A stretch of DNA of 64,000 nt, from IMG/VR virus record IMGVR_UViG_3300021376_000006. One strand, given 5' to 3'. The position numbers and the translations under genes were made by a program. Source of the stretch: a virus. Lineage: Duplodnaviria > Caudoviricetes. Each line of letters starts with the position of its first letter. The first letter of the stretch is position 1. Positions 4,408 to 28,078 of this stretch are shown piece after piece. The notes under the pieces are model-generated. The model saw nothing but the letters and a program-made list of their open reading frames with translations, ran no database searches and had not been told where the DNA came from.

Positions 4408-4454
4408 GTGTTTAATCCAATAATGATTATCACAGTATTTAGTTCAATTTTGAC

Positions 4455-4836
4455 ATCCAGCCACTTCTGTTACCGAGCAGGCTGGGTCCATCTCTGAGTC
4501 TTAGTTTAGCTTAGGCAGCTAAACGAACCTCAAACAGCTCATCATTGGCTGCATTTATGGTTTTGCTTCTTTTACGGAGATCGCCTACCGTGTTGTCCAT
4601 ATCCTTACTTATTGCCCTGTCGAAACCAAATTCAGGCCCATCAAAAAGCATTTTCAAGGTGTCCCTCTCCGATACAACGAGGAATCGCTAACCTTGTCTG
4701 CCTTCCCCACTCTTATCAGCTTCCTCATACTTACCGTGGTGGGTCGTTATATCATCGGGCAAAATGCTTTTTGGTGGACCTGCCCGGGGTCGAACCGGGG
4801 TCCAGAACACCTTTCATTCAACTTCATACAACAATT
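4455..4836 (-). ncRNA. ssrA: circularly permuted (two-piece) tmRNA; acceptor piece ~4836-4772, intervening segment 4771-4640, coding piece 4639-~4455
   Basis: T-arm CCCGG-TTCGACC-CCGGG then CAGGTCC-A-CCA ending at 4772 lies upstream of 5' end GGGCCTGAATTTGGTTTCGAC at 4639; acceptor stem has G3.U70; tag ORF 4552-4511 encodes AANDELFEVRLAA*; outer ends approximate. Confidence 0.9.
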
Positions 4837-4960
4837 TTAATCTTTATTTTCTTTGACCCATTTGTAATAGATCAGTACGCATGCTAGTGTTATGGAACCT
4901 ATTAATAATACGCCCAATAAAAAACCAACTATAAAGTAAAGCTGCTCGGTTCCAATTTAC

Positions 4961-13717: not shown

Positions 13718-14083
13718 TTAAATTGCTATACGTTGTTGTCCGGCACGCCGCATTTCGCCGCGCATGATTGTTTTCATTACCAATGTGTCATTTATTTTGG
13801 CAACAGGCACTGTGATATCTGTTTCTAAATCAACCACATGAATTGCTACACCTTCGGGTAAATCTTTTAAAAATTTATGCCTTTTCAACAACAGCTTGCT
13901 AAAAAAATCTGCAACCTCGGCAATGCCGATAGGTTCGGTGTTTCTGGGATCGTTAATACGATCAACAAAATGTGTGGTAATTTTTACCGGTATATTGTAT
14001 GGTACGTATCTGGTGTTTAACACCTGGGTATAGTGCTTGGCCAGTTCAGCGTTGTTTTCTGTGAGAAATTCTTGCAAACGCAT
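13718..14083 (-). CDS. hypothetical protein with MRLQEFLTE N-terminus
   Basis: shared N-terminal motif; HFVDRINDPRN. Confidence 0.6.
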   Translation of the reverse strand: MRLQEFLTENNAELAKHYTQVLNTRYVPYNIPVKITTHFVDRINDPRNTEPIGIAEVADFFSKLLLKRHKFLKDLPEGVAIHVVDLETDITVPVAKINDTLVMKTIMRGEMRRAGQQRIAI

Positions 14084-16200
14084 TATGTTTTAATAATGAA
14101 GTTGATAGCCAGGTACGGAGGTAAGTTTTGATTTGTGCCGCTGACACCTGCAGAGTTTATTGTTACGCCGGTGCTGGCATAATCAGTCCAATTATAAAAA
14201 CTAGCATCTGTACCGGCGTCTGGACCTTCCCCAATCCATGGTTCATTTGGTCTAGCTTGATTAGGGGTGTTGCTAAGAACGGTGGTACTAGTTGGATTGC
14301 GTTCCCATGCTGCCGGTACCTCTGGGTCACCAGCATTAAGATAATCATTTATACCATAAAACAGAGCCCCACTCACAGGATCTCTTAATTGATGACGATG
14401 TGTAGGATCAGTGGTATTGTGACTGTGACTTACCACTACTGCATCTTTTGTGCCACCTGTGTTACCTATAGCATACAATGTGCCTGCGCCAACTGGCATT
14501 CTATTTCTGTAATCGGGCAGGTTAAATGTATTAACTCCGTCTCCGTTGCCAAAGGTGCTGCCAAGTATGGCAAACAATGCAGCATAGGTGGTTCTTGACA
14601 CTGCAAGGCCATTGCATAACAAGAATCCTGTAGGTGCAGACACTGTGGGCCACATCATCAAGCTGCCAGTAGGTACACTGTTGTTTTGTACAAAAGCAGT
14701 TGTAGCAACTGCGGTGTTAGATGTTCCCGGAGGCATAGTAGGAGTAAATATTTGTCCTCCTACGTGTAAATTTCCACCAAGACCTATACCTCCAGTAACA
14801 ACCAATGCACCGGTTGATGTTGATATAGCTGCTCTCGACGAACCTACAACTAGGTTGCCAGTCACTGCTAAATTTGCCGCGACCGAAGAATTGCCCGATA
14901 CAGTTAAATTGCCGCCCACTGAAGCAGTTAAACCAACATCCAATCTACCAGTTAAAGATACTGAATTGGCATGCATGGTATTCAACCGCATTCCTTGACT
15001 ACCAACATTTGAACTGATATTGGCGGTTGGGATCAAATCAGCACCCAAGTATATTGTTGCCACATTACTAACAGTAACAAAAGTATTTGCAGCATTTACA
15101 TTGCCTACTAAAATACTTTCTGAAAAAATGTTTTTAAAACGGTTAGTTGTATTTCCTAAGGTAAAAGTTACGTTTGCACTTGGGATAATATGGCCAAAGA
15201 AATTAGCAGTACCATTAACTAAACCCGACAGAATATCTACGTAATTTTTTGTAGCAAAAGTCAAAGCCGGAGATGAATTTGTTGGTTGTGCATATGCTTC
15301 GGCTAATCCTGTTTGATAATTGCCTCGTAAAAACGGTGTTTGCGTTCCGCCTGTTTTGAGACTTAATATAAAGTCGCGATTGTTAGTTTGATTGTGCAGC
15401 GTGACTGTGCCGCTAGTGACATTTGCAACAAAATCACTGGCTGCACCAAAAGTCAGGCCACCATCGTTTGTCAATGATAAAGATCCGTTAATAGATCCTG
15501 ACATGTTATTTCTTACGAATGTGTTACCAAACACAGCAACGTTGTTTACATATATAGATTGGGCAACTTCACTGTTACCCCAGAAAGTGTGTCCCAGTGT
15601 GCTGTTGAGATTGAGTCCCTTTTTTATAGTAGCAAAACCAGCTGTATCAGATGCAAAAGGACCGTCTTTGCTCCAGATACCCACTAATATATTGTCGATA
15701 AAAAATTTAATTACAACATAGGTAGTTGACGGTGGGGCATCTGTTACTGTGTCCGGGATAGCCCCTGAATTACCAGTGGCAAGTCTTGACAGAGGTCCTA
15801 CCAAGCGCCATTCAGTACCTGTATATATTTTAAGCTGTCCATTTGTAGTATCATACCACTGTTCACCAGTGTATGAGTTGGTCGGAGTTGATGCACTCAG
15901 AGTCATACCAGCCAAGGTTTTCCAAATGGCGTTGCCCGAGCCTTTAGTAGCAGCAACGTTAACACTTAAAAGTTTTGTAGTGCTGTTAAACCATAACTGT
16001 CCAGGAATAGGTGCAGACGGTTCTGTGGTTTTGGCAAAGTTTTCCATGAGTCTTACAAAGTTTTGATTTAAGAATAAACCATAACCTTTGTAATTTTTTC
16101 CTAATAGAACCAAGCTGGTATTGGCACTATCTGCGGTATTATCCAGCAAACCGCCCGCAATTAGATCTTCTCCGTTACTTAATGTAATATTATATGGCAT
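14083..16200 (-). CDS. tail fibre / baseplate fibre protein with tail-collar domain
   Basis: VLLGKNYKGYG...ENFA and GQLWFN/GEQWYD repeats, beta-rich repeats, collar VPTGSLMMW...GFLLCNG...TFNLPDYR, NLPPYLAINFIIK end. Confidence 0.85.
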   Translation of the reverse strand: MPYNITLSNGEDLIAGGLLDNTADSANTSLVLLGKNYKGYGLFLNQNFVRLMENFAKTTEPSAPIPGQLWFNSTTKLLSVNVAATKGSGNAIWKTLAGMTLSASTPTNSYTGEQWYDTTNGQLKIYTGTEWRLVGPLSRLATGNSGAIPDTVTDAPPSTTYVVIKFFIDNILVGIWSKDGPFASDTAGFATIKKGLNLNSTLGHTFWGNSEVAQSIYVNNVAVFGNTFVRNNMSGSINGSLSLTNDGGLTFGAASDFVANVTSGTVTLHNQTNNRDFILSLKTGGTQTPFLRGNYQTGLAEAYAQPTNSSPALTFATKNYVDILSGLVNGTANFFGHIIPSANVTFTLGNTTNRFKNIFSESILVGNVNAANTFVTVSNVATIYLGADLIPTANISSNVGSQGMRLNTMHANSVSLTGRLDVGLTASVGGNLTVSGNSSVAANLAVTGNLVVGSSRAAISTSTGALVVTGGIGLGGNLHVGGQIFTPTMPPGTSNTAVATTAFVQNNSVPTGSLMMWPTVSAPTGFLLCNGLAVSRTTYAALFAILGSTFGNGDGVNTFNLPDYRNRMPVGAGTLYAIGNTGGTKDAVVVSHSHNTTDPTHRHQLRDPVSGALFYGINDYLNAGDPEVPAAWERNPTSTTVLSNTPNQARPNEPWIGEGPDAGTDASFYNWTDYASTGVTINSAGVSGTNQNLPPYLAINFIIKT

Positions 16201-16251: not shown

Positions 16252-18360
16252 TTACTTTTTACGCCCACTTTTCATATTTGCACACCAGTGGTACATTCGA
16301 CCACGCTCACCACCGGATTTTTTAGCTTTTTGACGCAAACTGGTCACTGATCCTGAACAACTAGCACCGGCACGTTTGACTCTACCCGGACGACTTTGGC
16401 CCTTGACTTTGCCATCGGCAAAGTTTTCATCTATTTGTTGGTTTAAAAACTGTTGTACAGCTTGCAAATGATCGCTGCCAGCTACGTATACACCTTGTTT
16501 TCTTGAGGCCAAAAACTTATCACGCAGGTCGTTAACAGACTTAGCCACACGACCCGCCCGGTTAGGATATTCTGCCCAGTTGTTGGGCCACATCAGTCGT
16601 TCGCCTAGCTCAAAAAACTGTCGCACATTGCGTTCTGTGGCTGGTGCTTGACTCATTCTAACAAAGTCATATTCACCTTCACTCACAGCCTGTAAAAACT
16701 TTGTCAGCGTTTCAGCATCAAACTTTCTGTCAGGGAAATAGTTGGTGCTGGGTTGTGTGCCGAGTATGCGATTAAAAATAGACACACTGGGGTCCGACCC
16801 AATCTTACCTTTTACAGTATCATTTTCTTTTATGTTAGAGAACAGAACATATAAGAATGCGGCCGGATAACCTTTGATTTTGTGCGATAGCAAATCATCA
16901 TCCCAACTACCTTGATAGCTATCAATGATTCCCGCAGTAAGTTTGCGATCCATACCGTTGCCCTCGTACCAGGCGCCGTGCTGTTTGGCAATTGCCTTTA
17001 CTCGTTCGGTATCAGAATCTGATAACTGTAACCGCTTGCCGTGTTCTTGTCCGACAATAGCAGTATCATTGCCTATGAAAAGCACCCGGCTGGTTTTGGC
17101 TTCTGTAACAGATTCTCCGCCGCCTCCATCACCTCCACTATCACCAGATTCCGAACCGTGAGCACCACTGCCGTAATAACCATAGCCAGGATACCAATAA
17201 CCGCCAAAATACCTGTTGCGGCGTCGACGCTTTTTGCCTTCCGCCATGTCTTGTTTGTTTTTGATATGACTGTATACCCGGCGTAGTTGTTCTGCGTCAA
17301 GATCGTCAAGATGCTTGTGCCCAGTGAGTTTTTCTGTCATACGCAAGAAACTGGGTTCATTGTCCCAGGCTATGCCACGACGGTTAGCAAGATCGTGTAT
17401 CATCTTCTTGGTTATTTTGCCTTCCGTCACACCCGGCTTCAATCGTGTCAGTTCATACACCACTTGATCGCCATGGTCTTCACTGTAGTCATCATAGCCC
17501 CATGCGGCCGCATATCTTTGAACCAACCTGTCATATAATTTTGCTCTACTCTCACTGTTTTGTCCCGGATCAACATCTTTTTTGGCTGAAAAAATCAAAC
17601 GCCATGGTTCGTGTTCTTTGACGAATTTTTGTATGGCATTTAAAACCGTGGCAAATATTCTTTGTGCATCACCTTCACCAGTAATTTCTTGACTGTTGTT
17701 TCTATAAAACTCAACTTGCCATTCGTTGTTCCCTTCGTGATTGAACATGATGCTTAGGTACTTACCATCCGGCAATCGTACTAATGTGTCGTAATCGCCA
17801 AACTCACTTTTCTGCTCGATTTCATGTGGGTAGGGCTGATTAAACGCTTCGTCTAGATCATCCTGGTATTCAGGATTACGAGCAAGTTTAACCGCTCTCT
17901 TATTACCTAACACCCCAGGATTGAACCATACTGTACTTTCAACATCCCAAGCTCGCATTATGGTGTCTTGCCAATTATTCTCTGCAGTATAATGTACAGC
18001 ATCATAGTCCTGGCCAATTGCTGCCCAAGGCATTTTGGTCAGCAACTCTATAGGATTCTTAAATTGTGCCCCGTATTGTTGTGCAACAGCAACAGCATCA
18101 CGGTCTGACCTGATAGTTAGTATCTTTGCCGCGGGAGCGACATCAAACAAAAATCCTGTATCTCCAATCCATTCGGGCATTTCTGCATCACACCAACGCA
18201 CCCATTCGCTGGTTATTCCTTCAGGAGTTTTGATAGCGGTGCTGGTCCATACTTTGACTTGTGGCTTTAATCCTAAGGACTCATTGACAGTGTTAGGATG
18301 CGGTGCATATAGCTGTGTGCCTAATCCTGCTGCCTCGGTTATAAACTCGTAAGCTCTCAT
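16252..18360 (-). CDS. multidomain protein with [10 protein letters not shown]-terminus (putative internal head polyprotein)
   Basis: modules separated by hydrophobic-X-E motifs; basic Cys-containing C-terminal module. Confidence 0.7.
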
Positions 18361-19277
18361 TTTTTATTTTTATGTTTTTCTGCATAAGCCAGTACACCCT
18401 CACGCACCCAAGCACCATCTATATGTGCCTGTGCCCTGGTGTGCAGTCTTTGTTTATTCAATGGACCATCACCATTCACATTCTGCCAAAACTCTGTCCA
18501 ATCTATCTCACCAAAGTCATAGTGACCACGATCATCATTCCACTTGAGATCAGGATCTGGTAACTGGACACCAAGGTATTCAGCCTGCGGCACAGTGGCA
18601 TCCACGAACTTCTGACGCAGTTCATCATTGGTGTGACGCTTGATGCCCCAGGCCATGGTCTTTTCTGTGTTAACACTCTCAGCGTCAGGTGGGCCAAACA
18701 TGGCTAGAGTTTTCCACCACCAGCGATCCACAGCCGCCTGCACCATGTCTCGTTGCTCATCAGTACCCTTCATCATGACCATAAGCTGATCATAGCCCTG
18801 GCGCTGATGAAAACTTTCTTCTTTACAGATGCGTATCATGGCACGGGCATATGGACCATAACTGCAACGACACAGGGGAATCTGATTCATGATGGCCGCA
18901 CCATCTACCAACCAACCTATCACTGCTTGATCAGCCCAGGTCACGGCAGGATAATTAAATATGCTGCTGTATTTGGCTTGTCCTGTGTGCAGTTCCGCTA
19001 ACATTTCTTCACGACTGATTCCCAAAGTCTCTGCGGCGCTATACAAATATATACCATGCCCGCCTTCATCCTGTACTTTGGCCAGTAGAATGGCCTTGCG
19101 TTTCAGTGTTGGTGCTCGAGTGATCCAACCGCCTTCTGGCAGCATGCCTACGATTTCACTGTGAGCATGTTGACTAATTTGTCTTATAAGAGTCTTGCGA
19201 TAGGCATCAGGCATCCAGTCCTGAGGTTCTATTTTAATTTCATTGGCAATCTTATAATCAAATTTTTCTTGGCTCAT
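18357..19277 (-). CDS. paaA: 1,2-phenylacetyl-CoA epoxidase catalytic subunit A
   Basis: [50 protein letters not shown] diiron motifs. Confidence 0.95.
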
Positions 19278-19435
19278 TTTACTATCTTAAATCGTGTACA
19301 TTTTGACTGAAATGGATACTCATTGTAAAATTCTGCCCAATTTCTACAATCTTCTAATGTATTATACTGTTTTTTTACAAATAACACAGGAGGGTCACTT
19401 GATAAAATATACACAGTTAAGATATACACAAACAT
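19274..19435 (-). CDS. 53-aa Cys-x15-Cys mini-protein (not in ORF track)
   Basis: [53 protein letters not shown]; AAGGAG upstream; ATGA overlap with paaA. Confidence 0.65.
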
Positions 19436-19453
19436 CTCAAATGTGCTCCTTGT

Positions 19454-19645
19454 TCAAGTGGTAGGTGGGGGTTCATAATTTTCTACCCATGTACACCTTA
19501 ACGTGGCCACTTTAGGCTGTTCAAGCAAATGGGTGGCTTCCGCCCAGCATTCCTGCATGGTAGGAAAACCACCCATTTCAACTGATTCGAGTCCAGGTGT
19601 GCCTGTGTTCAGCGTGATAAAAAAGTAGACATATAGTACATACAT
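19454..19645 (-). CDS. Cys-x17-Cys mini-protein
   Basis: hydrophobic N-terminus, GFPTMQEC-x17-C; paralog of 25960..26145. Confidence 0.65.
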   Translation of the reverse strand: MYVLYVYFFITLNTGTPGLESVEMGGFPTMQECWAEATHLLEQPKVATLRCTWVENYEPPPTT

Positions 19646-19800
19646 GCCTATATTTATCAGAAATAGCGTTTGTAATTAGTTCAAACCAATCACTCCTTTA
19701 CCCCAGTGCATCTGGTACTAATTTTTGTGTAAAATATATGTAAAACATATGGCCATACCCAGCACTAAAAATATCATGGCTTTTTTTAATTCACTCATTG

Positions 19801-19983
19801 TTATTCCTTTGTTTCAAAACATATCATGTATTGTGTGCCGCAGTATGGACAACTGGCCATACCGTTTTCGTTAAAATCTAAAAATACCTTGGGATGCGCG
19901 GACCAAAATTCCATAGCAGGGTTTGGACAAAACGCAGGAAGTTTTTTTTGGTTTATTTGGACAGGCTTGGCAGGCGGTTTCAT
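19801..19983 (-). CDS. zinc-finger (CHCC-type) protein
   Basis: CP...HPKVFL...CPYCG. Confidence 0.8.
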   Translation of the reverse strand: MKPPAKPVQINQKKLPAFCPNPAMEFWSAHPKVFLDFNENGMASCPYCGTQYMICFETKE

Positions 19984-20399
19984 TAAGTATCATCTGTTTT
20001 GTCATGGCTGGGATAGTTATGGCTGGCGTATCTTATCAAGACCACACTGAAAGTGATTACAAGTGTAGATCCCGCGACTGCAATCATTTGCCAAATGTCA
20101 ATGGCAGCGTGACTCATGATATCTACCATGTGGCGAGTGAGTGCTGTAATTGCTATGTATAATAAAAATCTTACGGGCATATGATTGGTATTAAAATAAA
20201 TTCCAACCATAGCTCCAATTTCCAAGTATATAAACAATAAAAGCAAATCACTTACACCAGCATGATGTTTAGAAAACAGTTCAAAAAAAGTCCACGATGC
20301 TGCCCACACTGTGGCAGCACCAATTCCAAACAGTGCCAGCTTATGGAAAGTTGCTACCAGTGTGTTGGCAACATGATTGATTTTTTCACTGTCAACCAT
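19983..20399 (-). CDS. phosphate-starvation-inducible PsiE-family membrane protein
   Basis: LLLFIYLEIGAMVGIYF...PVRFLLYIAITALTR. Confidence 0.8.
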   Translation of the reverse strand: MVDSEKINHVANTLVATFHKLALFGIGAATVWAASWTFFELFSKHHAGVSDLLLLFIYLEIGAMVGIYFNTNHMPVRFLLYIAITALTRHMVDIMSHAAIDIWQMIAVAGSTLVITFSVVLIRYASHNYPSHDKTDDT

Positions 20400-20408
20400 A
20401 CGTGCTTA

Positions 20409-20882
20409 TCACCACATGTCACGAATTTGTTTTTTCTTGCGCTCGGCCACTACCCAGTTTCCACGCAGAGCAAAATACAAACCGCCAACCCAGAGAGAGA
20501 AATGTAAATAATCCGTCAGCATAAAAGTTATCAAACTCTCGGGTTTCAACACAACCCAAATTACACCAGTGGCCACACAACACATCACAATGCCGCTGAA
20601 TCTGGTCAGTGCATCACCGAACTCTGCAGCATAGGGCCAGTCACGGATTTTGTACAATGTGGCTGCACCACCCACTAGCAGTCCCACTCCTGCCAGTACT
20701 TCACCATAAGCAACAAACCACCACACCAAGGGACCAAGTCCAAATGCTGCTCCGCCTGCGGGATCAAAGGGCAGTTTGCTCAAGCCCTGTGTGATAAAGA
20801 TCAAGGCCAGAGGAATCCTTAACAACAGATTGCTCCAAGCAAAGTCAGGAAGCATGTGCCAATAATTTTTTACCGATATCAT
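20409..20882 (-). CDS. DoxX-family membrane protein
   Basis: LLLRIPLALIFITQGLSK...GEVLAGVGLLVG. Confidence 0.7.
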   Translation of the reverse strand: MISVKNYWHMLPDFAWSNLLLRIPLALIFITQGLSKLPFDPAGGAAFGLGPLVWWFVAYGEVLAGVGLLVGGAATLYKIRDWPYAAEFGDALTRFSGIVMCCVATGVIWVVLKPESLITFMLTDYLHFSLWVGGLYFALRGNWVVAERKKKQIRDMW

Positions 20883-20893
20883 ATATTACTCCA

Positions 20894-21064
20894 TTAGTTT
20901 TGTGTAAAAGCTGAATTTGTTACTAGTGTGCAACGAACTGATTTTACTCTTGGATCCTTCAATGCCTCAACTTTAACTGCTTCACACTGTTCCTGTAGCG
21001 CATAGGCAGCTACCCTGTGATCATTGCCTGGATTGAACAGCCACGCAATGTACATTATCCACAT
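20894..21064 (-). CDS. 56-aa Cys-x17-Cys mini-protein (not in ORF track)
   Basis: MWIMYIAWLFNPGNDHRVAAYALQEQCEAVKVEALKDPRVKSVRCTLVTNSAFTQN. Confidence 0.6.
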   Translation of the reverse strand: MWIMYIAWLFNPGNDHRVAAYALQEQCEAVKVEALKDPRVKSVRCTLVTNSAFTQN

Positions 21065-21364
21065 TTATTTCACAGTCATTATGTATTGTGCCAGCAGTTT
21101 TGCATCTGCCTCTGACACATGGGGTTGCTTGGGCATGGCCATGGCGCCCCAGACTCCACCGCCACCATTTCGAATTTTTCCAGCGAGATACTCTACTGCA
21201 TCTTTTCTATCTTTGTATTTGGCTGCTACTTCTTTCAAAGATGGACCTACTACCCTGTTCTGTGCCTGATGACAACCAATACAACCAGACTTTCTAAACA
21301 ATGCGTCATCTGCCTGAACAGGCATTGATAATATAAATAATACTGTAAACATTACATTTTTCAT
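21065..21364 (-). CDS. class I cytochrome c (c551/c552-like)
   Basis: signal peptide, CIGCH heme motif, VGPS, WG...MP axial Met. Confidence 0.9.
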   Translation of the reverse strand: MKNVMFTVLFILSMPVQADDALFRKSGCIGCHQAQNRVVGPSLKEVAAKYKDRKDAVEYLAGKIRNGGGGVWGAMAMPKQPHVSEADAKLLAQYIMTVK

Positions 21365-21393
21365 GAACTTCCTTTCACATTAAAAATTTAAAC

Positions 21394-21576
21394 ATGCGTT
21401 TTTTATATCTAATTTTATCACTGTTACCTGCTCCATTATTTTTACTACTTGGTATCTTCAACCTCTTTCATTCACCCTCTCATTGTGGTTCATTTCAATA
21501 TGAAATGACTACGATGTGGTTTGTCATGTTTTTTGCACATCTTTTACCTTGGTTAAAAAAAATCAAAACTTCATAG
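21394..21576 (+). CDS. small membrane protein
   Basis: two hydrophobic segments; only plus-strand ORF in the cassette. Confidence 0.5.
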   Translation: MRFLYLILSLLPAPLFLLLGIFNLFHSPSHCGSFQYEMTTMWFVMFFAHLLPWLKKIKTS

Positions 21577-22096
21577 CAATTTTTACAGCCGCTTTTGATC
21601 CAGCGTGAACCAATTTACACCATAATTTTAATGCACGACCTGGTACAACTATAACATCGCCCAAAGCATCTTGTCTATGACGGATTTCATCAAAACGCAG
21701 TTTTTTCAAAATATCAATCAACTGCTGCTGATTGTTAACTGTGATACCAGCGAGGTCCGCATCATACACGGATAAAAATTCTATCTGCTCCAAATAATGC
21801 TGATCAACAAAAGTTTCTACTGTGGCAATGGTGTGTTTAATCCAGTTAGGTCCCATGACAGCAGGAATGAATCCAGTTATGAAACCAGCAACTGCCCACA
21901 GTGGCACAAGCAGGCTGTGCTTGGATCTAGGCAAAATGGCATTGACCTCAGCCAGATGCTGTGATTCTTGAGCTAAATGTTCTTGCATAAGATCGGCCGT
22001 TGCTGAATCATGGCGGAACAATTGCATGGCTCGATAGATCCAGACTGCACCTGTCTCTCCAGCCTGATCAGATCTAAGTGCTTGTACTAGATCCAT
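21563..22096 (-). CDS. COQ7-like demethoxyubiquinone hydroxylase (ferritin-like diiron)
   Basis: LRSDQAGETGAVWIY, ESQH, VETFVDQHY, DEIRH. Confidence 0.8.
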   Translation of the reverse strand: MDLVQALRSDQAGETGAVWIYRAMQLFRHDSATADLMQEHLAQESQHLAEVNAILPRSKHSLLVPLWAVAGFITGFIPAVMGPNWIKHTIATVETFVDQHYLEQIEFLSVYDADLAGITVNNQQQLIDILKKLRFDEIRHRQDALGDVIVVPGRALKLWCKLVHAGSKAAVKIAMKF

Positions 22097-22745
22097 TGCT
22101 TATTTTTTCTTTGTGATAGTCACAGAGGTCTGTAAACATGCATTCATTGCATCTAGGACCCCGTGCTCGACAAACATACTTACCATACTCTATAAGCCAT
22201 TCATGTGCGCCCCAACGATATTGATCTGGAGTTCGTTGCTCAAGAACTTCTGCTGTTTTGTGTTCTGCCTTGGTCTTGGCAATGCCTAGCCTATTAACAA
22301 TGCGATGCACATGGGTATCCACTGCAATCGCAGGTTCATTGAATACAAAACGCATCATAATGTCTGTGCTTTTGCGTCCTACCCCTGCCAACTGCATCAA
22401 CTGTTTTCTATCGTTGGGCACAATGCCGGCGTGACGCTCTAACAATTGTTGGCTCATTAATTTGAGATTCTTGGCCTTGTTGTTGTACATGCCTGCAGGC
22501 CGAATCAATAGTTTTAGTTCATCTATGTCTAGAGCCAAAATCTCCTCAGCAGTTCTAGCTCGGGCAAACAGATTACGGCAGGCTTCTGCGGTTCTTTCGT
22601 CTTTGGTCTGAGCAGACAATGTCACACCAACCAGGCTCTTGAATGCGTTATTGTATATCTTTTCTTTGGGCGGTCTATTAGGTTTAGGATTACGAGCATG
22701 AAACCTTTCATAAACAGTGATCAGTTTTGTTTTAACCATTGTCAA
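22074..22745 (-). CDS. nth: endonuclease III (HhH-GPD, 4Fe-4S)
   Basis: LSAQT, GVGRKST, AVDTHV, C-x6-C-x2-C-x5-C. Confidence 0.92.
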   Translation of the reverse strand: MTMVKTKLITVYERFHARNPKPNRPPKEKIYNNAFKSLVGVTLSAQTKDERTAEACRNLFARARTAEEILALDIDELKLLIRPAGMYNNKAKNLKLMSQQLLERHAGIVPNDRKQLMQLAGVGRKSTDIMMRFVFNEPAIAVDTHVHRIVNRLGIAKTKAEHKTAEVLEQRTPDQYRWGAHEWLIEYGKYVCRARGPRCNECMFTDLCDYHKEKISNGSSTST

Positions 22746-23905
22746 ACCACCACACTAGACGGTGTGGTGTATCCAATCAAGATATCGTTGCCCACATCGT
22801 TAATGTCTCTGTGTCCGGTCAATGCCATAGTAGTATCTAGTTCACTATGGATAATTTCCAAACATTTTGTAACTCCTTGTTCGCCCATAGCACCAAGGCC
22901 ATGTAAAAATGCTCGGCCTATCATAGTGCCACGAGCACCTAATGCCCATGCTTTCAAAACATCTTGCCCGGATCTAATACCACTGTCCAACCATACTTCA
23001 CAATCTTTGCCCACCGCCGCTACAACACTTGGCAATGCCATGATAGTGGACACAGCACCATCCAACTGTCTGCCACCGTGATTGGACACTACTATAGCAT
23101 CTGCTCCTGTATCTCTAGCCAATTTTGCATCATCTCTGTGTAGTATGCCTTTCAGCACCAGTGGCCCGCCCCAGCGTTTTTTGATCCATTCTATGTCATG
23201 CCAGGTCATGGTGGTATCAAATTGTTCTGCGGTCCACGCAGCCAAGGATCCCATGTCTGTGACTGATTCTGTATGACCAATAATATTACCAAAGTTACGG
23301 CGTTTGGTACGCAGCATGTTCCAACACCATTTGGGTTTGGTCATCATGTTAAAAACATTTTTGGCAGTGAGTTTGGGTGGAGCACTCAGTCCATTATGGA
23401 TGTCTTTGTGACGCTGCCCCATGACTTGTAGGTCCAGTGTAAGCACAAGAGCACTGCATCCTGCCACTTTGGCTCTATCAATCAGTCTTCCAATAAAGGT
23501 TCGATCCTTCATCACATACAGTTGAAACCAAAAAGGTTTAGTGGTATGTGCAGCAACATCTTCTATAGAACAAATACTCATGGTAGACAGGCAGAAAGGC
23601 ACTCCAAATTTTTCTGCTGCTCTGGCAGCTAATATTTCACCGTCAGCGTGTTGCATGCCTGCAAACCCTGTGGGTGAAAGTGCCACAGGCATTGTGACCT
23701 TGCGGCCCAGCATGGCAGTGATCAATTTTCTATCACTGACATTTTTGGCCACACGCTGATGCAGTTTTATCTTGTCAAAATCCGTTGTGTTGGCTCTATA
23801 GGTAGACTCTGTCCAAGACCCACTGTCGCAGTAGTCATAGAACATGCGAGGTGTGCGTGATTCATGCAAACGCCGTAGATCTTCAATGCAGGTTACCACT
23901 GTCAT
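22742..23905 (-). CDS. lldD: FMN-dependent alpha-hydroxy acid dehydrogenase (L-lactate dehydrogenase-like)
   Basis: SPTG, WFQLY, LKGI, SNHGGRQLD, DSGIRSGQD, GRAF. Confidence 0.92.
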   Translation of the reverse strand: MTVVTCIEDLRRLHESRTPRMFYDYCDSGSWTESTYRANTTDFDKIKLHQRVAKNVSDRKLITAMLGRKVTMPVALSPTGFAGMQHADGEILAARAAEKFGVPFCLSTMSICSIEDVAAHTTKPFWFQLYVMKDRTFIGRLIDRAKVAGCSALVLTLDLQVMGQRHKDIHNGLSAPPKLTAKNVFNMMTKPKWCWNMLRTKRRNFGNIIGHTESVTDMGSLAAWTAEQFDTTMTWHDIEWIKKRWGGPLVLKGILHRDDAKLARDTGADAIVVSNHGGRQLDGAVSTIMALPSVVAAVGKDCEVWLDSGIRSGQDVLKAWALGARGTMIGRAFLHGLGAMGEQGVTKCLEIIHSELDTTMALTGHRDINDVGNDILIGYTTPSSVVV

Positions 23906-23906
23906 G

Positions 23907-24284
23907 CTATTTTATTCCTTTTGGCCAGGGCCATTTTTCGTCGTCGCTGAGTTCTTGATCACGTGGACTGCGATCAGGTTGTCTAAACTGTTCGTCAGTG
24001 GGACGATCAGGATATTCTTTTTGCACTGTACGCACCACTAACCATGTGACAAAAGCCATGCTGACAATAGCCAAATGACCAAACACATTATAGCCAAGGT
24101 ACATTATTTCGCCAGTGTATAAACTAAATGCCAACGCCCAAAAACAGGCCAGCCACACACTGATAATATATTTCATCTGTGCAGGTGCGTTTTTTAGTCC
24201 GTTTTTATTAGGATCTAGAAGATGATAAAAATTCCTAGCCAGGAAGAATAAAAATTTGAATAAGCTGTACATAGGGCCTTTCAA
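23907..24284 (-). CDS. membrane protein
   Basis: two TM segments; DPN.NGLKNAP. Confidence 0.55.
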   Translation of the reverse strand: MKGPMYSLFKFLFFLARNFYHLLDPNKNGLKNAPAQMKYIISVWLACFWALAFSLYTGEIMYLGYNVFGHLAIVSMAFVTWLVVRTVQKEYPDRPTDEQFRQPDRSPRDQELSDDEKWPWPKGIK

Positions 24285-24320
24285 AAAAAAATTTTAAAAT
24301 GATTTTTACAACACCAATAA

Positions 24321-24349
24321 ATTGTACGATAATAATTGAATTAGGTCAA
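24321..24349 (-). promoter_or_regulatory. sigma70-type promoter for the 24284-lldD-nth-coq7 run
   Basis: TTGACC-N17-TACAAT. Confidence 0.7.
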
Positions 24350-24369
24350 GCAATCTGGCTGTTCTTTGA

Positions 24370-25113
24370 TTATTCTATCATATAATGGTTGAAACTAAAC
24401 CATCCTTGCCATTCTGATCCCATGATAGAATATGATTGTTCGGCAACCTCTGAAGAAATTCGTTGTTTCATTCGATTGTGTGACGCCGATTCAATCATAA
24501 GTTGAACTTGACAGCTTCTTTCCATAGTTATGAACCACCAAGCAGCAGCATCTACTGTGCTACCAACAGTAAGTAAACCATGATTTTGCAGTATCGCTGC
24601 TTTGTTATTGCCCAATGCTTTGGCTATCCTTTGTCCCTCTTCCAGTTCAACTGCAACTCCACCAAAATCATGATACACAGAATGGTCATTGAAAAAAGCA
24701 CAAGCATCCTGTGTGACTATATCTAAACGTCGACCAAACACGCTCCAAGCGCGACCATAAATGCTGTGTGTATGTGCTGCTGCCATCACATCAGGTCTGG
24801 CATGGTGAACTGCATTGTGAATAGAAAATCCTGCCAGATTAATCTGTCCATTGCCATTGATAACTGAACCAGTTTCGTCAACCTGTATGAGATTACTCAC
24901 ACACACTTGACTGAAGTGACAGCCAAAAGGATTCATCCAAAATGTATTTGGAAATTCAGGATCTCGAGCAGTTATATGACCAGCCACGCCTTCATCAAAT
25001 CCAAACTTACTAAAAAGTCTAAATGCTGCGGCCAAACGCTGTTTTATATGCGATCGATGTTGATCAACATCAGAAAATACTGGTGGATTAGGCAAGTTCA
25101 TAAGATTGCTCAT
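24370..25113 (-). CDS. class II aldolase/adducin family protein
   Basis: GHITARDP, HTHS, LQNHGLLTVG metal-binding motifs. Confidence 0.9.
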   Translation of the reverse strand: MSNLMNLPNPPVFSDVDQHRSHIKQRLAAAFRLFSKFGFDEGVAGHITARDPEFPNTFWMNPFGCHFSQVCVSNLIQVDETGSVINGNGQINLAGFSIHNAVHHARPDVMAAAHTHSIYGRAWSVFGRRLDIVTQDACAFFNDHSVYHDFGGVAVELEEGQRIAKALGNNKAAILQNHGLLTVGSTVDAAAWWFITMERSCQVQLMIESASHNRMKQRISSEVAEQSYSIMGSEWQGWFSFNHYMIE

Positions 25114-25149
25114 GGATTTAAACCTTTACAATTTTTTTTTACATAAAAC

Positions 25150-25365
25150 TTAACTTTGACCAAATATTCGTCTTATTACATAATTTGTATGACGATTGTC
25201 TTGGTCAAGATAACAGATTTCACACAATGCTAATTTCGGCCCATTATGCCCATCAAGAAATTTATGACAGGCAGCACAGTGAATAAACTTTTCGACAATT
25301 TGCCAGGCTTCTGTGTGCTGTGGTACTAGTTGCCAATCTTTATTCTCATGCAGCCAATAGCTCAT
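25150..25365 (-). CDS. small CxxC...CxxC zinc-finger-like protein
   Basis: CAAC and CEIC; no signal peptide. Confidence 0.45.
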   Translation of the reverse strand: MSYWLHENKDWQLVPQHTEAWQIVEKFIHCAACHKFLDGHNGPKLALCEICYLDQDNRHTNYVIRRIFGQS

Positions 25366-25628
25366 GCACCGCCCCATTCATTTTTAGCCACCTCACTTGC
25401 TTTAGGTGTGTCTAATCTAGAATTTGAATTTGGTCTAATTTTTTTAAGATTTTTTTGAAATTGTTTTTTACGCCTGCGTTTTTCTAATGTGTCTATTACA
25501 AATCCGGGTAACACATGCAACACTATGTACACTCCAAACAGTATGCCCAGCACTGGTCCCCAAAATGCCATGAACGCCCATTTCAGTTTATCTATCAAAA
25601 AATATGTCTCCAACAAAAGGTATGACAA
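25362..25628 (-). CDS. small membrane protein with basic tail
   Basis: hydrophobic segment followed by KRRRKK. Confidence 0.45.
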   Translation of the reverse strand: MSYLLLETYFLIDKLKWAFMAFWGPVLGILFGVYIVLHVLPGFVIDTLEKRRRKKQFQKNLKKIRPNSNSRLDTPKASEVAKNEWGGA

Positions 25629-25683
25629 TCATTAGGCCAATGACAGTGCCAAAAAAACCAAGTATTTCAATCATAAGTTAATC

Positions 25684-25944
25684 TCAATATGTTTCAGCAT
25701 TCGGATTATACCCACGCATGTTCCATTGATACAGCTTTTGTTCGTGCCAATAAGTCTTAAAAGCTTCTTTTGTTTTAAACTTTTTCTGAAACTCCTCTGT
25801 CACAGATAAACAACTCCACAAGTCTTGACCACCCATTTCACCTTTCATGAACAAAGTGTCACAGTCCCAATAGTATTTTTCAAGTTGTTTATATGGCAAC
25901 TTAGCAGCATTCAAAGCAAGAGCAAGAGTTATTGATAGTAACAT
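25684..25944 (-). CDS. small exported protein with two Cys
   Basis: signal peptide; YWDCD...SCLSV. Confidence 0.55.
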   Translation of the reverse strand: MLLSITLALALNAAKLPYKQLEKYYWDCDTLFMKGEMGGQDLWSCLSVTEEFQKKFKTKEAFKTYWHEQKLYQWNMRGYNPNAETY

Positions 25945-25959
25945 ATAACTTATTTTCTG

Positions 25960-26145
25960 TCAAGTTTTATTTTGATATCCGTCTTTCCAAGTGCATAGAA
26001 TATCCGAAACATTAGGATTTTTCATTTGTATTCGAGATTCTGCCAAGCATTCTGACGTGGTAGGATATCCTGCAATGGTCACAGGTTTCAACCCTACCAA
26101 ACCAGAATTAGTGGTGATCAACATATACACGATCAACACATACAT
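25960..26145 (-). CDS. Cys-x17-Cys mini-protein
   Basis: start moved to MYVLIVY; GYPTTSEC-x17-C; paralog of 19454..19645. Confidence 0.65.
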   Translation of the reverse strand: MYVLIVYMLITTNSGLVGLKPVTIAGYPTTSECLAESRIQMKNPNVSDILCTWKDGYQNKT

Positions 26146-26149
26146 GACC

Positions 26150-27349
26150 TTATCTCTTGAACTTGGCCGCTTCTTCTGACCCGCCTGTGGCATTGCCCTT
26201 GCTGTAGCTATGAGCACCCACACCTGCCAGTTGACCATTCTGCACCACCAGATATTCATTGCGTATTGGGCGACCTTCAAAATGGCATTCTAACACTTCA
26301 CGCACACCTGCGGCATAGCGTGTTTGTGCTGACAAACTGGTGCCAGAAATATGCGGTGTCATGCCATGCCAGGGCATTGAACGCCAGGGATGATCCTGTG
26401 GTGCGGGCTGCGGGAACCATACATCGCCAGCATAACCTGCTAGATGTCCACTTTCCAATGCACGGGCCACAGCATCACGATCGCATACCTTGCCACGTGC
26501 AGTGTTCACAATATAGCTGCCACGCTTCATCTTGGCAATCATGGCATCATTAAACAAGTGTTCTGTTTCTGGATGAAGTGGGCAGTTGATGGTCACAACA
26601 TCCACCACACGAACCATGCTTTCTACGCTGTCATGCCAGGTAAGGTTTAGTTCTTGTTCAACATGTGCAGGCAAACGATGACGATCAAAATAGTGTAGAT
26701 GCACATCAAATGGTTTGAGTAATCTCAATGCTCGTAATCCAATACGACCTGCTGCCACTGTGCCTACATGCATGCCTTCGATATCATAACTGCGACTTAC
26801 ACAGTCAGCAATGTTCCAGCCACCATCTACAACCTGTTTGTAACTGGGAATGTAATTGCGTACCAGACTCAACATCTGCATCACAATGTGTTCTGCCACA
26901 CTATTACTATTACAGTATGTGATTTCTGCTACAGTAATGCCACGATCCATGGCTGCTTGTAAGTCCACATGATCTGAACCAATGCCTGCTGTGAGTGCCA
27001 GTTTAAGTTTTGGTGCTCGGGCAATTCTTTCTGCTGTAAGATAAGCTGGCCAGAACGGCTGACTGATAATCACTTCAGCATCATGTAGATTGTTCTCCAA
27101 TCTACTGTTGGGTCCATCTTTGTCTGAAGTCACAACAAATTCATGACCTAAATTTTCTAAAAATTTTCTTAGACCTAAACCACCTGTAACACTGCCCAGT
27201 AGTTCACCTGGAGAGAAATCCACAGCATGTGGACTTGGAACGGTCTGTCCATCTGGGTAGTGCGTGATTGTGGGAATGCTGTCTCTTGCGTAACTTGTTG
27301 GATGACCATTTACCGGATCATCATATAAAACACATAGAACTTTAGCCAT
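26150..27349 (-). CDS. fdh: NAD-dependent formate dehydrogenase (metal-independent)
   Basis: MAKVLCVLYDDP, GIGSDHVDL, NSVAEH, AAGRIG, YFDRH, NTARG, GDVWFPQP, TPHISG. Confidence 0.96.
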   Translation of the reverse strand: MAKVLCVLYDDPVNGHPTSYARDSIPTITHYPDGQTVPSPHAVDFSPGELLGSVTGGLGLRKFLENLGHEFVVTSDKDGPNSRLENNLHDAEVIISQPFWPAYLTAERIARAPKLKLALTAGIGSDHVDLQAAMDRGITVAEITYCNSNSVAEHIVMQMLSLVRNYIPSYKQVVDGGWNIADCVSRSYDIEGMHVGTVAAGRIGLRALRLLKPFDVHLHYFDRHRLPAHVEQELNLTWHDSVESMVRVVDVVTINCPLHPETEHLFNDAMIAKMKRGSYIVNTARGKVCDRDAVARALESGHLAGYAGDVWFPQPAPQDHPWRSMPWHGMTPHISGTSLSAQTRYAAGVREVLECHFEGRPIRNEYLVVQNGQLAGVGAHSYSKGNATGGSEEAAKFKR

Positions 27350-27361
27350 TGAGCCTCCTTG

Positions 27362-27390
27362 AATAGATTTATTATACTATTTAATCTATT
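27362..27390. promoter_or_regulatory. 8-bp inverted repeat upstream of fdh, overlapping a TTAAATA box
   Basis: AATAGATT-N13-AATCTATT. Confidence 0.4.
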
Positions 27391-27397
27391 ATATGAT

Positions 27398-28078
27398 CTA
27401 CAAATTTCTTTCCCAGATCACAAAAGGATCATTGACCACAATAGTGCCGTCGGGTCTGGCCATGTAATTGCCACTATGTAGATCCACTGAAAAATTGTGT
27501 TTGCGAGCAAATCTTGAAACTTCGTATACTGTCTTTAGTAGGCCATCTGCTCGTTCGGGCCCACCCAATAGGTCAATGACTTCTTGTACATCTTCAAAAT
27601 ACTTGGGATTGTAACCTGGTGAGTAATAATCTTCGGCACTGGCAAACTCAGCATAACTTTTTATTTTGTTATACGCTGCTTGTAAATTGCCTCGGCCTAT
27701 CTGTTTGGTCACTTGATCAATCTGTGCTACTAAATCTCTAACAGTGTTGGGTAATTCTTCTAGTGTTTCCATTCTGGCCTGAATATATCTTTTACCTTGA
27801 AATTCAAAACTTTCAAATCCTGAGAATCTGGGCAAGTGCGGATTGTTGCGATGCTTGTTGCAATAGTTAATCCAATCGACAAACATTCGTTGATCGGGAC
27901 TGAAATCTTGTACACCTTTACGATAACCAAACACAATATACACTTGACCGTTGGGTTCTAAATATGCATGTTTGTCTATACCACCGCCTAAATAAGTATA
28001 ACCTTTATCTGCTAATACATTTGAGATGCCTCTATGTATTGATCCGGCCATTTCTGTGGTGAAGTCCGCTGCTCTCAT
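27398..28078 (-). CDS. protein kinase-like domain protein with MRAADFTTE N-terminus
   Basis: LGGG glycine loop, DLHSGNYM catalytic loop, NDP metal site. Confidence 0.75.
   Translation of the reverse strand: MRAADFTTEMAGSIHRGISNVLADKGYTYLGGGIDKHAYLEPNGQVYIVFGYRKGVQDFSPDQRMFVDWINYCNKHRNNPHLPRFSGFESFEFQGKRYIQARMETLEELPNTVRDLVAQIDQVTKQIGRGNLQAAYNKIKSYAEFASAEDYYSPGYNPKYFEDVQEVIDLLGGPERADGLLKTVYEVSRFARKHNFSVDLHSGNYMARPDGTIVVNDPFVIWERNL

Follow-up and report, generated by a model that had tools for sequence, protein, structure and literature searches.

The 64-kb window analysed here is the whole 64,000-nucleotide stretch of IMG/VR record IMGVR_UViG_3300021376_000006 (Duplodnaviria; Caudoviricetes). 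It is coding almost throughout on the minus strand, with a GC content of 0.34-0.46, and at 18357-27349 it holds a block of 19 minus-strand open reading frames (ORFs). Eleven host-type genes stand in this block, all on the minus strand, where an earlier reading made from the sequence only had placed them. Pfam and NCBIfam profiles bear out its eleven gene calls, one of which, a membrane protein here termed mem125, is a call without a family. In order of transcription, with profile scores and cut-offs in bits, the genes are:

26150..27349, minus strand: NAD-dependent, metal-independent formate dehydrogenase (FDH; NF005750)
24370..25113, minus strand: class II aldolase/adducin-family enzyme of the PRK06208 subfamily (379 bits, cut-off 255), 247 aa
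23907..24284, minus strand: mem125, a membrane protein without a family, 125 aa
22742..23905, minus strand: FMN-dependent (S)-2-hydroxy-acid dehydrogenase of the LldD/mandelate-dehydrogenase type (LldD-like; PF01070, 458 bits)
22074..22745, minus strand: Nth-like HhH-GPD DNA glycosylase (HhH-GPD, 89.5 bits) with an Fe-S Cys cluster
21563..22096, minus strand: COQ7-family di-iron protein (COQ7-like; PF03232, 130 bits, cut-off 23.5)
21065..21364, minus strand: class I cytochrome c, periplasmic (PF00034, 40.2 bits, cut-off 21.3)
20409..20882, minus strand: DoxX-family membrane protein (PF07681, 28.9 bits, cut-off 23.6)
19983..20399, minus strand: PsiE-family membrane protein (PF06146, 68.7 bits, cut-off 23.9)
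19801..19983, minus strand: zf-CHCC zinc-finger mini-protein (PF10276, 36.9 bits, cut-off 27)
18357..19277, minus strand: PaaA, catalytic di-iron subunit of phenylacetyl-CoA epoxidase (TIGR02156, 516 bits, cut-off 280)

Stops and starts overlap from mem125 through the LldD-like and Nth-like genes to COQ7-like, and again from cytochrome c through zf-CHCC. The block is a real auxiliary-gene island, contiguous within the genome of a very large freshwater-lake phage, in that host-type genes lie between phage genes on one contiguous molecule. The sequence-only reading had already held that the cassette is integral to the phage, and phage genes on both flanks, phage-like composition, even read depth and junction-bridging contigs all agree with this. 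Downstream, the stop of PaaA and the start of the next gene share an ATGA overlap that can be read in the sequence, and this flank holds a 702-aa gene with matches in PHROGs only and a tail-collar fibre gene (14083-16200). Upstream, FDH starts 48 nt past a gene for a 245-aa protein, so that its position was described correctly; the description of that neighbour as a kinase was not confirmed, as it has no match in Pfam or PDB. The same flank holds an amidoligase-domain gene whose relatives among GenBank phages occur only in the jumbo phages Atu_ph07 and RsoM2USA.

Between 60 and 93% of words sampled from the 9.9-kb stretch around the island were present in each of 22 lake-water metagenome runs; no RNA run was listed among those containing this stretch, or among those containing FDH by itself. 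In three of four runs examined, 30 of 30 bins over the flanks and the cassette showed similar depth (about 16-45 in run X1, for example), and in the fourth, X23, 26 of 30 bins were covered, with the gaps in flanking genes. Contigs bridge the junction between PaaA and the next gene in X1, X2 and X23. Contiguity, which the sequence-only reading had left to be confirmed with reads, thus holds by even depth in three runs and a bridged junction in three. GC at third codon positions is 0.29-0.48 in the cassette genes and 0.29-0.40 in the other phage genes measured, while the homologous host loci have an overall GC of 0.44-0.60 (0.35 in Methylopumilus). The identity of island genes to bacterial genes (66-82%) could be taken as a sign of host DNA mis-joined into a phage contig. 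Such an artefact is hardly credible given the phage-like composition, the even depth, the bridging of the PaaA junction in independent runs, the interleaving of phage-only mini-genes, the real stop/start overlap with the next phage gene and the homologues in about 80 independent viral contigs. The assembly chimera that had been named as a refutation is effectively excluded by depth, bridging contigs and composition.

The lake contigs also contain low-depth joints (24273->25149, 21066->26150, 19662->20893 and 19270->25450), one of which omits exactly the aldolase gene; the others omit larger blocks bounded by mini-protein genes. These hint weakly at gene-content variants in the lake population, the evidence being weak because the sides of the joints are only 20-30 nt long and no repeats account for them; a search for direct repeats found nothing that would.

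According to CheckV, related IMG/VR fragments of 57.6, 84, 98 and 104 kb represent 11, 21, 28 and 30% of complete genomes, respectively, which puts the relatives' genomes at roughly 350-500 kb. The hosts are probably Burkholderiales. Megablast of the 9-kb island against 50,697 GenBank phage records gave no match. Matches to FDH and DnaK by tblastn in the GenBank phage collection were mostly to 'phages' of cultured hosts (Staphylococcus, Listeria, Salmonella, Acinetobacter); these records look like bacterial contigs filed as phage and were not used as viral occurrences. The suspect records, which also include Enterococcus, show bacterial-like identity, and some are shorter than 10 kb or labelled as bacterial strains.

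A recurrent core and separate add-ons

We sought the genes of the island in related viral contigs, fetched by likeness to FDH, PaaA, the LldD-like enzyme, the aldolase, COQ7-like, DoxX and mem125 and scored by tblastn. Merging of loci on the same contig left 84 IMG/VR viral contigs, with flanks of at most 10 kb. Four of the eleven genes stand alone in this set, with no other cassette gene within 10 kb: FDH in nine contigs (85-88% identity to the window), PaaA in five (loci L010-L014; 64-81%), the LldD-like gene in two (59-66%) and the 247-aa aldolase in three (L017-L019; 75%). In five whole records bearing FDH or PaaA (57-281 kb, one 94% complete), mem125 and DoxX were not found. The genes next to FDH and PaaA in these relatives are phage-like and rich in auxiliary functions (DnaK, PstS, a phosphate porin, radical SAM enzymes, NAD synthase). 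The zf-CHCC gene occurs in none of the fetched viral loci.

Other genes of the island recur together. The most widespread is mem125, present in 62 of the 84 contigs; an aldolase-like gene of a different, 218-aa type accompanies it in all 32 contigs that have this type. Cytochrome c was found in 21 contigs and DoxX in 20, of which 17 also have cytochrome c and 17 have mem125. PsiE (seven contigs), COQ7-like (six) and Nth-like genes (four) each lie beside this core. The recurrent unit is therefore mem125, cytochrome c, COQ7-like and DoxX, often with Nth, PsiE or an aldolase-like gene. Co-occurrence in viral databases had been proposed as a check on the cassette as a whole, and in this respect the earlier proposal fails: the eleven genes are not one conserved unit. 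We consider it highly probable that the island is a genuine composite of a conserved core and independent add-ons.

The surroundings of the core recur as well. At least nine contigs have the module between nrdA and nrdB, and elsewhere it lies a few kb downstream of nrdAB; the nrdA-nrdB gap appears to be a recurrent insertion hot spot for it. The inserted loci are L020, L021, L035, L037, L065, L076, L085, L086 and L094. In the nearest relatives (L027/28/42/44, on contigs of 74 and 100 kb), mem125, cytochrome c, COQ7-like, DoxX and Nth stand in a row, with DnaK about 1.4 kb past it. These two contigs (L027/L042/L048 and L028/L044/L049) carry two mem125 paralogues about 28 kb apart; the 218-aa aldolase-like gene and a paralogue of the mini-proteins accompany the second. 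In the window, the one mem125 has partners of both kinds around it, as though the two modules had merged.

In a comparison with L042, DoxX (77% identity), Nth (84%) and mem125 (70%) are orthologous, while the COQ7-like proteins share only 41% identity and the cytochrome c of the window, of another subtype than in the viral relatives, has no BLAST match there. Similarly, the window aldolase sits where relatives have the 218-aa gene, adjoining mem125, and has no significant BLAST match to that type (L020 copy), being of a different subfamily. Retention of one combination while distant homologues replace some of its members is the strongest evidence here that the core is functionally coupled.

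These patterns bear on the possibility that the island has no joint function and is a hypervariable region gathering unrelated host-derived genes (morons), each selected singly or nearly neutral. The add-ons do occur singly and in differing contexts in relatives, the phage clade shuffles auxiliary genes such as PstS, the phosphate porin, radical SAM enzymes and NAD synthase, and the short-sided joints hint at gene-content variants, including the one lacking exactly the aldolase gene. However, the pairing of cytochrome c with DoxX (17 of 20) and of mem125 with the aldolase-like gene (32 of 32) is far from random, the combination survives replacement by distant homologues, and DoxX, COQ7-like and a periplasmic carrier are clustered in hosts too. 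For the island as a whole, we regard a mere collection of morons as quite unlikely.

Proteins encoded in the island

The core combines a soluble carrier with membrane and di-iron proteins of poorly understood families. The mem125 protein has an amphipathic N-terminal helix and two membrane helices, with an invariant His and a nearly invariant Glu. It has no family in Pfam, NCBIfam or PHROGs; the ESM Atlas holds it only in unnamed, mostly viral clusters, and its AlphaFold model (pLDDT 73) retrieved one unnamed homologue only from the AFDB clusters. PHROGs likewise have no family for Nth, COQ7-like, DoxX or PaaA. The cytochrome c has a CIGCH motif, a distal Met (AMP) and a cleavable-looking N-terminal signal peptide. 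PsiE is 54-74% identical to the copies beside the core in the seven viral contigs.

The COQ7-like protein aligns with human COQ7 (7ssp, residues 52-213) and has the AGE, ESQH, VE and EIRH motifs, including both ExxH. The earlier call of coq7 was right as to the family, and it is not the canonical ubiquinone enzyme by the NCBIfam cut-off, with 40.9 bits against the 180 of the ubiquinone Coq7/DMQ monooxygenase model (NF033656). Many of its bacterial homologues are fused to a DCC1-like domain (thiol-disulfide oxidoreductase). The Nth-like protein scores 191.3 bits with the endonuclease III model TIGR01083, just under the cut-off of 211.7, and has the C-x6-C-x2-C-x5-C cluster, the Lys of GVGRK and the Asp of VDTH. 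Copies 79-84% identical adjoin DoxX or mem125 in L024, L027/28, L042/44 and L051, while identity to host Nth is only 37-41%.

DoxX is 68-81% identical to copies in 18 IMG/VR loci and 59-72% identical to homologues in freshwater Burkholderiales genomes. Viral and bacterial sequences are interleaved in its tree, with the window copy in an all-viral clade; the tree gives no direction of transfer because its midpoint rooting is arbitrary. Methylophilaceae and Comamonadaceae each form clades embedded among the viral sequences (L111, L113-L115, L117 and L118 against viral L021 and L038; L102-L110, L112 and L116 against L020, L029-L033 and L040), a pattern suggesting repeated exchange between phages and hosts in freshwater Burkholderiales.

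Among the add-ons, FDH scores 697.5 bits with NF005750 (cut-off 329) over profile positions 1-385 of 386. It aligns end to end with the solved enzyme 2gsd, and the motifs NSVAEH, TARG, PQP, TPH and FDRH are identical; we take the roles of their residues (catalytic Asn, Arg, Gln and His, and an NAD-specifying Asp) from FDH of Pseudomonas sp. 101. Like the methylotroph enzymes (2gsd from Moraxella; 2nac/2nad from Pseudomonas sp. 101), to which it is colinear over the full length at 700-750 bits, it is a complete FDH; unlike them, it is phage-encoded and falls in a viral and metagenomic clade of its own. This clade of 21 members (the window, six IMG/VR and 14 unnamed metagenomic sequences; support 100/99) is separate from the named enzymes of Methylophilaceae, Methylobacter, Methylomicrobium and Paracoccus. 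Its members share 85-98% identity among themselves and at most 82% with named bacterial enzymes, and they lie on contigs of at most 98 kb, while several of the named matches at 77-82% lie on contigs of hundreds of kb to Mb. Only three of 151 sampled Burkholderiales genomes have an FDH orthologue, with a best identity of 76%. Right after FDH in L002, L003 and L004, the sequence resembles the tmRNA region of the window (4420-4864); the likeness is a 26-aa match in a spurious frame (73%, e.g., at about 11272 in L004), with DnaK about 1 kb on, and FDH, tmRNA and DnaK may be neighbours in these phages.

PaaA is colinear with the solved catalytic subunit (4iit/3pvr) and keeps the HSE, DEGGH, DGAA and EESFH di-iron motifs of 4iit; it shares 73-77% identity with genes of Limnohabitans and Oxalobacteraceae. 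Like the known PaaABC(D)E complex, it shows near-complete positional conservation with the catalytic subunit, the di-iron ligand motifs included. Unlike that complex, only the A subunit is present in the 64-kb window, as it is in the five other viral contigs with PaaA alone. With ORFs of an Oxalobacteraceae paa operon (L124) as queries, among which PaaB was not included, only paaA was matched in the window, and paaC, paaD, paaE and paaK had no counterpart.

Two further enzyme names from the earlier reading hold at the family level only. The enzyme called lldD is an FMN-dependent 2-hydroxy-acid dehydrogenase, reaching 439 bits with PRK11197 (cut-off 376) and failing the LldD model NF033901 with 386.6 against 550; it matches mandelate dehydrogenase, glycolate oxidase, HAO1 and hydroxymandelate oxidase with similar scores among solved structures, and Burkholderiales genes at 66-68% identity. 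The class II aldolase does belong to that family, and its nearest solved relatives are 4xxf and the oxidative decarboxylases NovR and TqaM (214-233 bits) rather than sugar-phosphate aldolases; it reaches 53 of the 400 bits of the L-fuculose-phosphate aldolase model TIGR01086.

These relatives raise the possibility of an aromatic or quinone-ring pathway, in which the island would make or tailor a quinone: the NovR/TqaM-like decarboxylase and the mandelate-type FMN dehydrogenase would convert a 4-hydroxymandelate-like acid in the direction of 4-hydroxybenzoate, the COQ7-like protein would hydroxylate the resulting quinone, and PaaA would act on a related aryl-CoA. CloR and NovR convert a hydroxyphenylpyruvate to a hydroxybenzoate by way of a hydroxymandelate, and animals have a 4-hydroxymandelate route to the coenzyme Q head group. 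The closeness of the aldolase-family gene to NovR and TqaM, the FMN enzyme's matching mandelate and hydroxymandelate enzymes about as well as glycolate oxidases and HAO1, and the company that an aldolase-like gene keeps with mem125 and COQ7-like in many phages would all fit. Nonetheless, such similarities do not reveal the substrates; relatives rarely have the LldD-like gene or this aldolase subtype, and they have them separately; the aldolase-like gene that is common among phages belongs to a different and very divergent subfamily; and we saw neither a prenyltransferase nor any other ubi gene in the island. We judge a pathway of this kind very unlikely.

The sequence-only reading had instead joined all eleven genes into a phage-built respiratory booster that could supply NADH from formate, electrons from alpha-hydroxy acids, quinone synthesis, an electron carrier and oxidative DNA repair. 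In such a scheme the hydroxy acids would yield quinol, COQ7 would make more ubiquinone, cytochrome c would carry electrons and Nth would mend the resulting oxidative damage. Several features speak for it: FDH is intact and retains every catalytic motif, the LldD-type enzyme has its full length and the size of membrane-linked bacterial dehydrogenases, the set includes a quinone-related di-iron enzyme along with a c-type cytochrome and DoxX, and the genes are closely packed along one strand, stops overlapping starts. Yet FDH, the LldD-like gene, PaaA and the aldolase never occur with the core in the 84 related contigs, and neither mem125 nor DoxX is found in the records of 57-281 kb that bear FDH or PaaA. 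The COQ7-like protein falls far short of the ubiquinone enzyme (41 bits against 180) and has relatives fused to thiol-disulfide oxidoreductase domains, the dehydrogenase fails the LldD test, and the scheme leaves PaaA, PsiE and the aldolase without a role. In hosts, moreover, DoxX and COQ7-like cluster with stress genes, not respiratory genes. What can be kept of this proposal is that FDH and the LldD-type enzyme plausibly add reducing power; the eleven genes as one functional unit are unlikely.

Host neighbourhoods and proposed role

Host genomes offer a further view of where these genes come from and what surrounds them. In five candidate-host genomes, PaaA (73-77% identity), the aldolase (68%) and the LldD-like gene (66-68%) all lie at dispersed loci, PaaA within a full paa operon; the DoxX homologues, too, are among the dispersed ones. 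The dispersal indicates that the phage lineage put the set together one gene at a time. Homologues of DoxX (59-72%) were found in Limnohabitans, Rhodoferax, Ramlibacter, Oxalobacteraceae and Ca. Methylopumilus, complete chromosomes among them. In 6 of 20 Burkholderiales loci a COQ7-like gene adjoins DoxX or lies a few kb away, in 4 of 20 a high-potential iron-sulfur protein (HiPIP) gene lies directly upstream of DoxX, and one Limnohabitans locus has a mem125 homologue near DoxX and COQ7-like.

The other host neighbours confirmed by Pfam are a DCC1-like thiol-disulfide oxidoreductase, DUF4149, DUF2237, MsrA, a Dps-type ferritin, photolyase, a photolyase-related protein (DPRP), BLUF, MerR, MarR, Rrf2, a PNPOx-like protein, FolB and an FAD amine oxidoreductase; an SDR-like gene adjoining DoxX was read from the ORF list only. 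Neighbourhoods with MerR, photolyase, SDR, FAD-oxidoreductase and fol genes characterize light-inducible LitR clusters in Pseudomonas (PMC9758184), which the host DoxX/COQ7-like neighbourhood resembles in gene content. Such company suggests a setting in (photo)oxidative stress rather than in respiratory-chain operons. The phage loci share with the host cluster only DoxX, COQ7-like and mem125, with cytochrome c in the place of HiPIP.

We lean slightly towards reading the island as a composite of a redox core, built around quinone and a periplasmic carrier, and add-ons that feed electrons. A role of the core itself in redox homeostasis or stress is plausible from gene families and neighbourhoods, although we hold it only tentatively. 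During infection, the periplasmic carrier would exchange electrons with the quinone pool via DoxX, the COQ7-like di-iron enzyme would act on quinone at the cytoplasmic face, and mem125 and the aldolase-like enzyme would assist. The core could thereby keep membrane redox in balance and curb (photo)oxidative damage during phage replication in sunlit, oxic water, and the Nth-like glycosylase could remove oxidised or UV-damaged bases. FDH (formate to NADH) and the LldD-type enzyme (2-hydroxy acids to quinol) would supply added reducing power, with FDH, the LldD-type enzyme, PaaA, this aldolase type and zf-CHCC having presumably joined one by one.

Several observations weigh against this composite reading. 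The tight packing and overlapping stops and starts suggest that core and add-ons are co-transcribed in this phage, and FDH and the LldD-type enzyme would fit energy supply. The co-occurrence counts are conditioned on the fetch queries, which included mem125, DoxX and COQ7-like, and on fragmentary contigs with flanks no longer than 10 kb. The path proposed for the electrons is a guess, since mem125, PsiE and this DoxX/COQ7-like subfamily have no known biochemical function. The argument from the host neighbourhood is guilt by association only, and neither the window nor the viral loci have the host HiPIP, DCC, DUF4149, DUF2237, MsrA, photolyase or DPRP genes, nor BLUF, PNPOx, Dps, FolB, MarR or SDR.

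Cyanophages carry electron-transport genes, namely plastocyanin (petE), ferredoxin (petF) and the plastoquinol terminal oxidase PTOX, and their soluble carrier and di-iron enzyme are thought to balance host electron flow during infection. The island resembles the petE/PTOX arrangement in that large aquatic phages pair a small, soluble carrier of electrons with a di-iron enzyme that is associated with the membrane and acts on the quinone pool. It differs in that its likely host is a heterotrophic or methylotrophic betaproteobacterium, there are no photosynthesis genes and the system is known from genes alone; moreover, a c-type cytochrome takes the place of the carrier, partnered by DoxX, a COQ7-family protein and mem125 with its two transmembrane helices. 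By this analogy, the core might be a portable electron-transfer unit of freshwater phages of heterotrophic or methylotrophic Burkholderiales, an alternative quinol-oxidising or quinone-repair 'safety valve' composed of a soluble periplasmic carrier (cytochrome c; HiPIP in hosts), DoxX, the COQ7-like di-iron enzyme and mem125. We think this specific role improbable; if true, it would be a heterotroph counterpart of cyanophage plastocyanin plus PTOX and the first defined function for DoxX and this COQ7 subfamily.

Closer at hand is the host cluster of HiPIP, DoxX and COQ7-like/DCC1-like genes, to which the phage genes are related at 59-72% (DoxX), 38-50% (COQ7-like) and 44% (mem125) identity, and which has the same adjacency of DoxX and COQ7-like and a periplasmic carrier directly upstream of DoxX. 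Unlike the phages, the hosts use HiPIP and surround the cluster with regulators (MarR, MerR, Rrf2) and with MsrA, Dps, photolyase, BLUF and DCC. In mycobacteria, DoxX forms a membrane oxidoreductase complex with SodA and SseA, and MhqP of Bacillus is of the DoxX family. These systems likewise tie a DoxX-family membrane protein to the handling of thiol or quinone oxidative stress; unlike DoxX-SodA-SseA, the island has no SodA or SseA partner, and the relationship is at the Pfam level only (29 bits).

Freshwater phages, including megaphages, commonly carry genes for defence against reactive oxygen species (Kavagutti et al. 2019, PMC6802176). The main text of that study lists ferritin, superoxide dismutase, glutathione peroxidase, thioredoxin and glutaredoxin, and makes no mention of quinone, cytochrome or endonuclease III. 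A preprint on amoC phages deals with different phages. Auxiliary gene islands in large phages are an already known kind; no description of the core module, of the viral FDH clade or of viral PaaA standing alone turned up in the searchable literature, and all three appear to be undescribed.

Much is known of auxiliary metabolic genes in cyanophages and marine phages, and far less in phages of freshwater heterotrophs. The viral module described here, made up of mem125, cytochrome c, DoxX and COQ7-like, recurs in about 60 viral contigs and has a matching host neighbourhood, and most of its genes are missing from PHROGs. This gives testable handles on three poorly understood families (DoxX, DCC-associated COQ7-like and mem125). 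Recasting an over-integrated 'respiratory booster' as a core with add-ons also alters which experiments merit doing.

Mini-proteins and minor features

The mini-proteins interleaved with the cassette genes, as already described from the sequence, are real ORFs, and four of them are paralogues:

25960..26145, minus strand: mini-protein a, 61 aa from an internal ATG, with a hydrophobic N-terminus and two Cys
20894..21064, minus strand: mini-protein b, 56 aa
19454..19645, minus strand: mini-protein c, 63 aa
19274..19435, minus strand: mini-protein d, 53 aa, the most divergent, GC 0.28

All four (53-63 aa) have a hydrophobic N-terminus, two invariant Cys and a C-terminal C-T motif, and mini-proteins a and c are 45% identical. 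The family is confined to the island within the 64 kb; copies 45% identical to b adjoin mem125 in five loci (L045-L049, on four contigs). Judging from their sequences, they may be periplasmic or membrane disulfide proteins. An identity as precursors of ribosomally synthesized and post-translationally modified peptides was set aside because the island has no maturase and the mini-proteins resemble secreted or membrane two-Cys proteins, not leader-core peptides.

Three further small ORFs and the leader of FDH complete the annotated features:

27350..27397, minus strand: intergenic FDH leader, with a short palindrome and a strong ribosome-binding site, AAGGAGG, read from the sequence
25684..25944, minus strand: 86-aa ORF without a family, with a signal-peptide-like N-terminus and two Cys
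25362..25628, minus strand: 88-aa ORF without a family, with one predicted membrane helix and a basic tail
25150..25377, minus strand: 75-aa ORF with CxxC...CxxC, zinc-ribbon-like

The 86-aa secreted ORF has no detectable relation to a host secreted 107-aa neighbour of mem125/DoxX. The 75-aa ORF gives a weak match to Cytochrome_CBB3, under the cut-off; a zinc ribbon is likelier than a cytochrome, because its CAACH occurs without a signal peptide and a second CxxC follows 16 residues on. The T4-type late promoter TATAAATA does not occur inside the island on the coding strand, and scans of the island for sigma-70-like promoters and terminators barely exceed the shuffled expectation. Other products of the 64-kb window are DnaK, an exonuclease, an endolysin fragment, radical SAM enzymes and a tmRNA. 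On either side of the island stands a large gene (16252-18360 and 28075-30597), taken for putative virion cargo in the sequence-only reading; both begin with a similar N-terminal motif, M-R-A-Y/R-E-F, which may be a shared targeting or processing signal.

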